Below are positions 20,661-21,770 of a stretch of DNA of 64,000 nucleotides, in pieces. The stretch comes from Candidatus Poribacteria bacterium (GTDB taxonomy: Bacteria > Poribacteria > WGA-4E > PCPOR2b), in the NCBI GenBank assembly GCA_965116925.1, contig OZ220744.1:608001-672000 (forward strand), given 5' to 3'. The number at the start of each line of letters is the position of its first letter. Within the stretch, counting starts at the first letter, position 1. A program made the position numbers and the translations under genes. The notes under the pieces are model-generated. The model was given only the letters and a program-made list of their open reading frames with translations. It did not search any database and had not been told where the DNA came from.

Positions 20661-21770
20661 CTACGGCATTTCTCGGAGAAGTTGTTTGGTTACGACCTCA
20701 AATCGCGCACGTGTCGCATGCTGTAGTTGGGGAAACCAGAGGGCCGGATCCGATGGCTCGCTTGTCCACTCTGCTGACCCGCTATACAATACATAGACAT
20801 CCCACGCGGTTTCGTTTAAGCGGAGCAGATCCTTCCAAAGGTCGCCAGTGGCTTTGTTGCTATCCCAATAATGCGTAAATCTTTCGTGAGTAAACTCATT
20901 AGCCCGTCTCTCTGCCGAGACCCGATTATCGCTATTAAGGATCGGTTGCCAGATCAGATAAGCCCGCAGCCGTTCATCCCCAACTCTTTCAAACAGTTTT
21001 ATTATTTCGGAGACCCCCCGACGACATTTCGGTCAGCCGGGAGAAAGCAGCGCAACTACGCGAACATTACCTGTATCTTCTTGGAAATGATGCATCAACT
21101 GATCTATATGCACAAGTTCCGTGACAGGCTGCCGATCACTCCTGAAAACATCTTTCTGCTTTTCGGCAGTCTCGCGCATCTGATCAATCAGGGGCTTACG
21201 TTCATCTCGGTCTAGCACACCGAGCAAGGTGTTTTGCCACGCCATCGGAATGAGGACCTCCATCTGTTGCATGAGCGTGAGGCCATCAAGGGTGCCCCAC
21301 CGTTCCGCAACGACTCCATCGGCGATTTGATAGATGTCGAATCCTGACACCGTTACCTGCTTGTCAGTTGGGTCAATCCCCATAAAACTATTTTTGTGAG
21401 TACCCTGCATAGTGGTACGAGTTACCACCTGATCTCCGTTGACAGTCATCTGCTCAACGGTGAAACGCAGATCGGGAAAGGCGAAACGTAACGCTCTTAC
21501 GGTCTGTTTGAAGCCTTCTATGCCAGATTTACCCCCTAGACCGATTGGGTTATGATCGATATATTCAGCGGCAATTAGCGTCTCTACTTGCTCCAGCTTT
21601 CCCTTGTTAAAGACCTCCTCGTAGATGCGAGAGATGGTCGCTCGGTCCGCTGCCGCTCCGGCGTCTTCTGCCTCCGCAATTGATACCTCAATCAATAGGC
21701 AAGCACCGATTAGGAGCACTCCCACTATCAAGAGATGGGGTAGTTTTGTTACTGTTAGCGATTGTTTCAT
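20661..21770 (-). CDS. Predicted selenoprotein: signal peptide + SnoaL-like ester cyclase domain + thioredoxin-like UxxC domain (369 aa, Sec246)
   Basis: The track ORF stops at TGA 21033-21035. The frame continues as VVALLSPG-U-PKCRRGVSEI...LRAYLIWQPIL...HYWD...AWDVYVLY...LLREMP to TAG at 20661-20663. A SECIS-like hairpin follows the UGA. Confidence 0.85.
21007..21021 (-). promoter_or_regulatory. Candidate bacterial SECIS hairpin UCGGGG-GGU-CUCCGA
   Basis: 6-bp stem with a G-initiated loop, starting 11 nt after the UGA. Confidence 0.6.

Follow-up and report, generated by a model that had tools for sequence, protein, structure and literature searches.

Why would a gene annotated as a 245-residue ester cyclase end at a TGA codon behind which the same reading frame stays open almost to the next gene? 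The locus in question lies in a stretch of 64,000 nucleotides from a Candidatus Poribacteria bacterium (contig OZ220744.1, positions 608,001 to 672,000 of the forward strand; hereafter the window, whose own numbering is used unless another is named). On the minus strand, an open reading frame (ORF) of 245 amino acids (21770..21033) terminates at a TGA immediately after ...VVALLSPG. Reading through the TGA adds 123 further open codons (PKCRRGVSE...REMP; PKCRRGVSEIIKLFERV...LLREMP) before a TAG at 20663-20661, and the resulting product of 369 residues contains U246-P-K-C249, where U denotes selenocysteine (Sec). The downstream ORF has a TTG start at 20652, 8 nucleotides past this stop. A first-pass annotation, made from the letters alone, had read the arrangement as a hidden exported selenoprotein in which a SnoaL-like domain is fused to a thioredoxin-like UxxC domain; the frame, the motif, and the spacing to the next gene are all present in the sequence as it described them. 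From the sequence evidence presented here, the locus is almost certainly one intact gene for a 369-residue selenoprotein, with Sec decoding and a single product, rather than a 245-residue "ester cyclase" with nothing between it and the next gene.

The predicted coding sequence (20661..21770, minus strand) comprises 369 codons and the TAG. An AGGAG resembling a Shine-Dalgarno sequence (21778..21782, minus strand) can be read 7 nucleotides 5′ of the ATG at 21770. Codon 246 (21033..21035, minus strand) is the UGA predicted to specify Sec as the first residue of U-P-K-C. The codon for Cys249 (21024..21026, minus strand), presumably the resolving residue of the UxxC motif, is invariant in all 33 orthologues discussed below and in alignment A2.

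Conservation of the TGA and of the frame beyond it

Matches to the read-through product of 369 residues were sought in the window's own genome and in those of 60 relatives (61 in total). Full-length matches with exactly one TGA were found in 19/19 same-genus genomes (77 to 93% identity), in two further genera of the same family (G022 and G021; 63% and 46% identity), and, at 37 to 41% identity, in 11/11 genomes of a second family (f3). In total, the TGA occupies the identical alignment column in 33/33 extracted loci, within the context [LV]SP[GN]-U-P-[KLS]-C-[RS]-R-G. When 176 genomes of the phylum were scanned with a C-terminal-domain profile, matches were confined to the same 33 genomes, each with one copy and one TGA, and no Cys version of the domain was recovered in any of the 176.

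The sequence beyond the TGA is also under selection. Among the 33 orthologues, 32 of the 56 invariant amino acid columns are located at or past the UGA. The pairwise ratio of nonsynonymous to synonymous substitution rates (dN/dS) for 20 same-genus sequences was 0.147 in the SnoaL domain, 0.139 in the linker, 0.128 in the 25 residues before U, and 0.129 in residues 257-369; thus, the downstream frame is as constrained as the upstream one. The first-pass annotation had staked its proposal on the fate of this frame in relatives, where it is kept in every one of the 33 loci under purifying selection. Retention of both the TGA column and the open frame behind it throughout these orthologous loci takes the finding beyond chance.

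Two other accounts of the TGA were rejected. A global reassignment of TGA is ruled out because TGA terminates 14 of the 28 long ORFs in the window and the true stops of the orthologues are TAG or TAA. An arrangement of two separate genes is ruled out because no ATG, GTG, or TTG occurs in the first 81 codons past the UGA.

Homologues were collected by a HMMER search with residues 180-369, which returned 1017 cluster representatives at an E value of ≤1e-3; the best 150 of the 1017 were examined for their Sec/Cys state and domain partners. Homologues spanning the site read ...LLSPTCPxC..., with CxxC aligned to UxxC. Related loci were gathered with a 10-row alignment (A3). Eleven non-Poribacteria genome loci were recovered, with TGA at the site in 8 and Cys in 3. 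The best 80 metagenome loci included 46 with UxxC and 19 with CxxC, the other 15 having been missed by the search pattern (at least 4 of these show U). The expectation that homologues would carry either Cys or TGA at this position was therefore borne out, with TGA throughout the Poribacteria, a mixture of both in metagenomes, and the Cys forms being CxxC.

Several public entries (P0099, P0118, P0135, P0207, and P0230) start with MC[RVK]xG..., two residues past the Sec site. Such a start would be expected of a gene caller 3′ of a U-P-M-C TGA, and the entries probably represent the 3′ parts of selenoprotein genes that went uncalled. Because these entries begin just past the Sec site, the Sec fraction of the family would be systematically hidden.

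A hairpin past the UGA and the machinery to decode it

Stem-loops that serve as bacterial selenocysteine insertion sequences (bSECIS elements) lie roughly 11 nucleotides past the UGA and have G or U in the apical loop. A SECIS-like hairpin, UCGGGG-GGU-CUCCGA (or, alternatively, 5 bp with the loop GGGUC), is located at 21007..21021 on the minus strand. Its 6-bp stem starts 11 nucleotides past the UGA, as had been noticed at first reading, and is part of the minimum-free-energy fold; the apical loop is GGU or GUU.

In the orthologues, synonymous positions within this element hardly vary. Of 47 invariant columns with degenerate codons, 4 use one codon in all 33 sequences, and three of these (R251 CGG, G252 GGG, and S254 TCC) are in the hairpin. 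Two more codons are nearly frozen (E255, GAA in 32/33; P247, CCG in 31/33). The remaining invariant Arg, Gly, Ser, and Leu columns use 3 to 6 codons each.

Covariation was assessed in 45 distinct Sec-form sequences from several phyla. In total, 96.2% of the alignment cells were paired, and 4 of the 7 pairs had changed on both sides (17 cells); examples of compensatory change are C16-G28, which is U-A in 11 sequences, and locus L130, with changes in three pairs. None of 500 shuffles reached the values of the Sec forms, and slid controls paired at 33 to 71%. The hairpin is broken in the Cys forms, 12 distinct sequences of which encode nearly the same peptide (CPxCRRGFAD) from other codons, with 52 of 84 cells paired. 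Two loci with a 3-nucleotide insertion (L147 and L148) were left out of the 45-sequence alignment; on visual inspection, a 7-bp stem can still be drawn for them. In a second branch of the family, with U-[MG]-x-C (Holophagales and Thermoanaerobaculia), the hairpin is a different one, GNGCC-CGGGU-GGNNC, and lies further downstream.

The selenoprotein proposal also depended on the presence of selA, selB, selC, and selD, and all four are in the window's genome. The matches to selA (607 bits), selB (373 bits), tRNA-Sec (76.6 bits), and selD (369 bits) exceed the curated cut-offs, and selA, selB, and tRNA-Sec form one cluster at ∼2.37 Mb (positions 2373933-2377461 of the genome's own numbering). Across the phylum, selB is present in 167/176 genomes, including 28/28 and 11/11 in the two families that bear the gene. 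The product of selD (own genome, 6018631-6019551) is a selenoprotein in its own right, with a TGA in frame (G-U-A-A-K) and, 13 nucleotides past the UGA, a hairpin of 6 bp, CAGUCC-AGUU-GGACUG.

Domain architecture and known relatives

Residues 1-34 (21669..21770, minus strand) are a candidate signal peptide or membrane anchor, with K2 and K9, a hydrophobic stretch from L13 to I27, and A-E-A at 32-34; these are the features that had given the N-terminus its signal-peptide-like look in the first-pass annotation. AlphaFold2 predicted a low-confidence helix at residues 10-28. From this N-terminal pattern and the similar hydrophobic N-termini of stand-alone homologues, we infer that the protein is extracytoplasmic.

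Residues 45-169 (21264..21638, minus strand) correspond to a SnoaL-like, NTF2-fold "ester cyclase" domain. This assignment, already made from the letters, is upheld by PF07366 (E value, 3.9e-37; 127.3 bits versus a cut-off of 28.4), by Foldseek matches to TsrD, IdmH, and SnoaL (E values down to 3e-13; TMt, 0.82 to 0.92), and by phmmer matches in the PDB to IdmH (5.8e-16) and DynA1 (1.5e-15). The NCBIfam model SnoaL_meth_ester scored only 36 bits versus a cut-off of 200. The domain thus resembles the SnoaL-type PF07366 proteins (IdmH, TsrD, DynA1, SnoaL, and AknH) in profile and fold and aligns end to end with IdmH and DynA1, but it differs from them in that it is predicted to be exported rather than cytoplasmic, is fused to a selenium redox domain, and lies outside a polyketide cluster, with no polyketide synthase genes among the neighbors of the window gene.

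A linker of approximately 50 residues (170-220; 21111..21263, minus strand) follows, with a predicted local distance difference test score (pLDDT) of 46 to 59. It is shorter in some orthologues (deletions in f3 and g3), and its dN/dS is 0.14.

The C-terminal domain, residues 221-369 (20664..21110, minus strand), spans the UGA and is predicted to adopt a thioredoxin fold of the TlpA/DsbE/ResA type. AlphaFold2 modeled these residues with a pLDDT of 97.4, with a strand at domain positions 22-28, U at position 32, and a helix at 33-49; in the model, U246-P-K-C249 is therefore placed at the start of the first helix of the fold. Foldseek matched DsbE (3gl3), the C-terminal domain of DipZ, ResA, CcmG, TlpA-like proteins, and GPx7/8, with template modeling (TM) scores of 0.56 to 0.66 and 5 to 16% identity; the best scores were those of 3gl3 (E value, 2.9e-6; TMq, 0.63) and 5cyy (TMq, 0.66). 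A family profile searched against the PDB matched the TlpA-like structure 2l5o (E value, 2.7e-4) with its CxxC aligned. The thioredoxin-like UxxC domain proposed at first reading accordingly agrees with the predicted fold, the position of the motif, and the 2l5o alignment. Because the first strand of the fold lies upstream of the TGA and the first position of the motif lies at it, the annotated 245-residue product ends inside a domain.

The closest structural parallels are the TlpA, DsbE (CcmG), ResA, and DipZ reductases, which share with the Poribacteria protein the aligned CxxC of 2l5o, export or anchoring (predicted for the Poribacteria protein), and a DsbD-type partner, a membrane protein of this type being encoded in the window's genome. 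The Poribacteria domain differs from these reductases in its low identity to them, in having Sec in place of the first Cys, in its apparent W-D at the loop where a cis-Pro is expected, and in the additional SnoaL domain.

Thioredoxin-fold selenoproteins with a UxxC motif and a SECIS element within the ORF are, in the available parts of two surveys, the commonest kind of bacterial selenoprotein (PMC9312934; PMC13188914). The families listed there include a "thiol:disulfide interchange protein" (PF13098), a "Prx-like thiol:disulfide oxidoreductase" (PF00578), a "DsbG-like" family, a "thiol-disulfide isomerase-like" family (cd02966), and a "redoxin family protein" (PF08534) (PMC9312934; PMC13188914), and every family in the 2026 table, as far as it was available, has a Pfam, NCBIfam, or CDD identifier (PMC13188914). 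The Poribacteria protein shares with these a UxxC that opens with Sec and is placed at the N-terminal end of helix 1, a hairpin within the ORF after the UGA, many Cys homologues, and a probable extracytoplasmic location. In contrast to them, its C-terminal domain matches no defining Pfam or NCBIfam model (CDD models such as cd02966 being outside the comparison), and it is fused to SnoaL, with no Cys version of the fusion found among the database hits or in the 176 genomes of the phylum. The C-terminal domain of the window protein, like that of ten homologues, is missed by every Pfam and NCBIfam model, the NCBI selenoprotein models included.

The first-pass annotation did not recognize the architecture, and the literature searched gave the same result. 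No SnoaL, NTF2, or cyclase family is present in the available parts of the selenoprotein tables of PMC9312934 and PMC13188914, and no paper in the literature searched combines "selenoprotein" and "SnoaL." The one paper found with both "selenoprotein" and "Poribacteria" concerns hydrogenases, and a SnoaL-thioredoxin selenoprotein is not mentioned in the accessible portions of the report on new deep-Sep families (PMC12013277) or of Haft's preprint. That the protein is a real selenoprotein is strongly supported. With families compared by their Pfam and NCBIfam models, it represents a new, or at least unmodeled, family of a familiar kind of selenoprotein, with its domains combined in a new way.

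Proposed chemistry, metal-linked relatives, and meaning

Taken as a whole, we consider it probable that the gene encodes a Sec-decoded, exported-type SnoaL-thioredoxin protein with a selenol/thiol redox mechanism. UGA-246 would be decoded as Sec by SelB and Sec-tRNA(Sec), recruited by the in-frame hairpin 11 nucleotides downstream, the same sequence of which would also code for R-G-V-S-E. The signal peptide or anchor would put the protein outside the cytoplasm, where the SnoaL barrel, the flexible linker, and the thioredoxin fold would follow one another. The selenolate of Sec246 would attack an oxidized substrate (a disulfide, sulfenate, or peroxide) or a soft metal-thiolate, and Cys249 would resolve the adduct to give a selenenylsulfide. 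Re-reduction would proceed through a membrane electron shuttle, such as the DsbD-type protein of the genome, and the SnoaL domain would supply specificity for a substrate or partner. Thiol/selenol oxidoreductase chemistry of some kind is likely; that the SnoaL pocket binds the redox substrate is a tentative suggestion, with the odds against it. Termination by release factor 2 (RF2) always competes with Sec insertion, making some truncated product likely; because of this competition, a cyclase-only product with an incomplete thioredoxin fold is possible.

Several observations weigh against parts of this reading. The curated thioredoxin models all missed the C-terminal domain, with Thioredoxin_4 the best at an E value of 0.18 (12.4 bits versus a cut-off of 23.2). 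In the alignment, a near-invariant A-W-D-V-Y (W323-D324) is found and no Pro where the cis-Pro loop is expected, P276 and P342 being invariant elsewhere; because the cis-Pro seems to be replaced by W323-D324, the chemistry could differ from that of TlpA-type reductases. How the two domains are oriented is predicted with low confidence (predicted TM score [pTM], 0.52). No operon partner is kept between families f1 and f3, for the one f3 locus (L076) scanned with Pfam. The hairpin is no more stable than shuffled sequences: the 38-nucleotide fold has a z score of −0.16, with 76/200 shuffles as stable, and the 86-nucleotide fold has a nonsignificant z score of −1.02. Thermodynamic stability was dropped as evidence on these two values, and support for the hairpin consists of conservation and covariation because stability alone is nonsignificant. 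The hairpin is invariant within Poribacteria, where a 13-sequence alignment has 6 invariant pairs and 350/500 shuffles score as high; because of this invariance, Poribacteria alone yield no covariation, and the signal stems from relatives in other phyla. Many of the 11 changes from C-G to U-A may represent one inherited event, the sequences being related. In other phyla the stem is lengthened by a further base pair, at which Poribacteria have an unpaired G/A. The sequence is found in sponge metatranscriptome and metagenome runs, and two contigs from metatranscriptome libraries of one study (X2 and X3) span the whole gene, including the TGA, but RNA-library contigs may include DNA and are silent on strand, level, and translation, so that they lend weak support.

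The relatives in other phyla bear on what the UxxC might do. Judged from the sequences collected, the thioredoxin-like module is widespread, switches between Sec and Cys, and is unnamed in the family libraries searched. It occurs alone, in exported-type proteins of ∼200 amino acids, and in fusions. Among 57 longer representatives that were scanned, 17 (7/15 and 10/42) contain HMA and/or MerT, 1 contains rhodanese, and none contains SnoaL; in one (P0114), the N-terminal part is recognized by the MerTP-fusion model of NCBIfam. Six genome loci from outside the Poribacteria were scanned as well; two (L073 and L074) have MerT directly downstream, two (L073 and L075) have a zf_CopZ protein directly upstream, and L075 also has a MerR regulator; AhpC/TSA or thioredoxin genes adjoin three of the six, and AhpC/TSA adjoins two. 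SnoaL, in turn, is the constant partner in Poribacteria, and the SnoaL fusion was seen only there and only with Sec. The homologue clusters are named "hypothetical protein" or, for one fusion, "copper chaperone CopZ." A Cys homologue (P0090) falls among "hypothetical protein" clusters only in the Protein Atlas, mostly from Acidobacteriota, with the TlpA and AhpC families as weaker neighbors.

These associations are the basis for an alternative in which the same selenoprotein uses its UxxC mainly to bind or hand over a soft metal (Hg(II), Cu(I), or the like), or to keep the metal-binding Cys residues of partners reduced, as TlpA does for copper chaperones. The HMA and MerT fusions, the MerTP match of P0114, and the MerT, zf_CopZ, and MerR neighbors all point in this direction, and selenolates are known to bind soft metals tightly. 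The mer- or metal-fused relatives (P0114, P0130, and P0137; L073 to L075) have a homologous C-terminal domain (30 to 45% identity) with CxxC or UxxC at the site, but their partners are metal-transport modules, whereas the partner in Poribacteria is SnoaL and not HMA. The window's genome, which is 99% complete, gave no MerT match, the Poribacteria gene is in no metal-related context, and linkage to mer genes is confined to relatives in other phyla, whose association with metals does not fix the function of the Poribacteria member. We regard a metal-directed role as unlikely for the protein in the window.

A peroxidase of the GPx/Prx type, in which Sec246 reduces a hydroperoxide (perhaps a lipophilic one held by the SnoaL domain) and Cys249 resolves, is less probable still. 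GPx7-, GPx8-, and GPx4-type structures are among the best Foldseek matches (3cyn, E value 6e-6; 3kij; 2p5q; 5h5q), the near-invariant W323-D324 presumably occupies the loop in which GPx enzymes have a W-N pair, and AhpC/TSA genes adjoin 2 of the 6 non-Poribacteria homologues. The top structural matches, however, are reductases of the DsbE, DipZ, and ResA type, the motif is UxxC, as in thioredoxins, and not the UxxT of GPx, and Q275 is conserved within Poribacteria only.

That the TGA is a true stop or nonsense mutation, leaving only a 245-residue SnoaL protein and a downstream frame that is a dead remnant, a separate gene, or the product of non-Sec read-through, is very improbable: public gene calls do stop there (88/88 database hits) and RF2 competition makes some truncated product likely, but the TGA and open frame persist in orthologues down to 37% identity with a downstream dN/dS of 0.13, the short form would end within the thioredoxin fold, no start codon occurs for 81 codons past the UGA, and a covarying SECIS hairpin accompanies complete Sec machinery in the genome.

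Under the favored Sec-decoded redox protein, a broader proposal can be framed, which we consider speculative and improbable in its entirety. The C-terminal module (SP-x-U-P-x-C), which is common in soil Acidobacteriota, KSB1, and Poribacteria, would be an undescribed, widespread extracytoplasmic selenoprotein family whose selenolate serves as ligand or reductant for the soft metals that MerT-, MerP-, and CopZ-type proteins handle, and Poribacteria, by joining it to the SnoaL barrel, would have turned it into an exported selenoenzyme for a small organic substrate of the sponge matrix. Such a substrate class is not known for bacterial selenoproteins. The SnoaL fusion, of which no Cys form was recovered, would then also be obligately Sec-dependent.

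Other partners of the module were also observed. Four metagenome contigs (L092, L093, L095, and L105) carry the Sec forms nearest to the Poribacteria type, SPN-U-P-[LK]-C, with other N-terminal regions; one such partner is an unnamed region of ∼240 amino acids, and another ends in a DsbA-like "GTPTFFINGRKV" stretch. This variety suggests, from the sequences alone, that the selenium module is shuffled among exported partners. Members of the second branch (U/C-[MG]-x-C; L084, L085, L087, L089, and L090, from Holophagales, Thermoanaerobaculia, and Acidobacteriota) are fused to an unnamed N-terminal domain of ∼150 amino acids. In L084, L085, and probably L087, the gene's immediate neighbors are very long ORFs containing motifs characteristic of nonribosomal peptide synthetases (such as LAYVIYTSGSTGRPKG).

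Directly downstream of the selenoprotein gene in the window, an ORF on the same strand (18160..20652, minus strand) encodes a polytopic membrane protein of 830 residues whose central domain resembles spermine/spermidine synthases (PF01564; E value, 1e-5); it may be co-transcribed or translationally coupled with the selenoprotein in this genus. Further neighbors encode a leucine-rich-repeat protein, a PCMT, and an M3 peptidase. At 22459-23778 (minus strand), a 439-residue exported leucine-rich-repeat protein is built in part from ∼12 nearly identical repeats of 22 residues (NxISDLSPLAGLVxLxxLxL). Repeat proteins of eukaryotic type are a common finding in reports on sponge symbionts. At 26568-29696 (plus strand), a 1042-residue Type ISP restriction-modification enzyme is encoded (Type_ISP_C, E value 7e-100, with coupler and N6 methylase domains).

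All 88 public entries for the gene stop at the TGA, at 237 to 252 amino acids, and are called "ester cyclase" wherever they are named. Because every database entry ends there, the thioredoxin-like half is invisible to proteome-based analyses of sponge symbionts, and the calls for many soil-metagenome relatives similarly begin only at "MC..". With TGA more frequent than Cys in the best metagenome matches (46 versus 19), the module probably represents a selenoprotein family of considerable size that current lists omit. Its recurrent ties to MerT, HMA, and CopZ make it a candidate link between selenium and metals outside the cytoplasm, and the SnoaL fusion of the Poribacteria offers an expressible two-domain protein with which to ask what role an NTF2 pocket may play beside a selenol.

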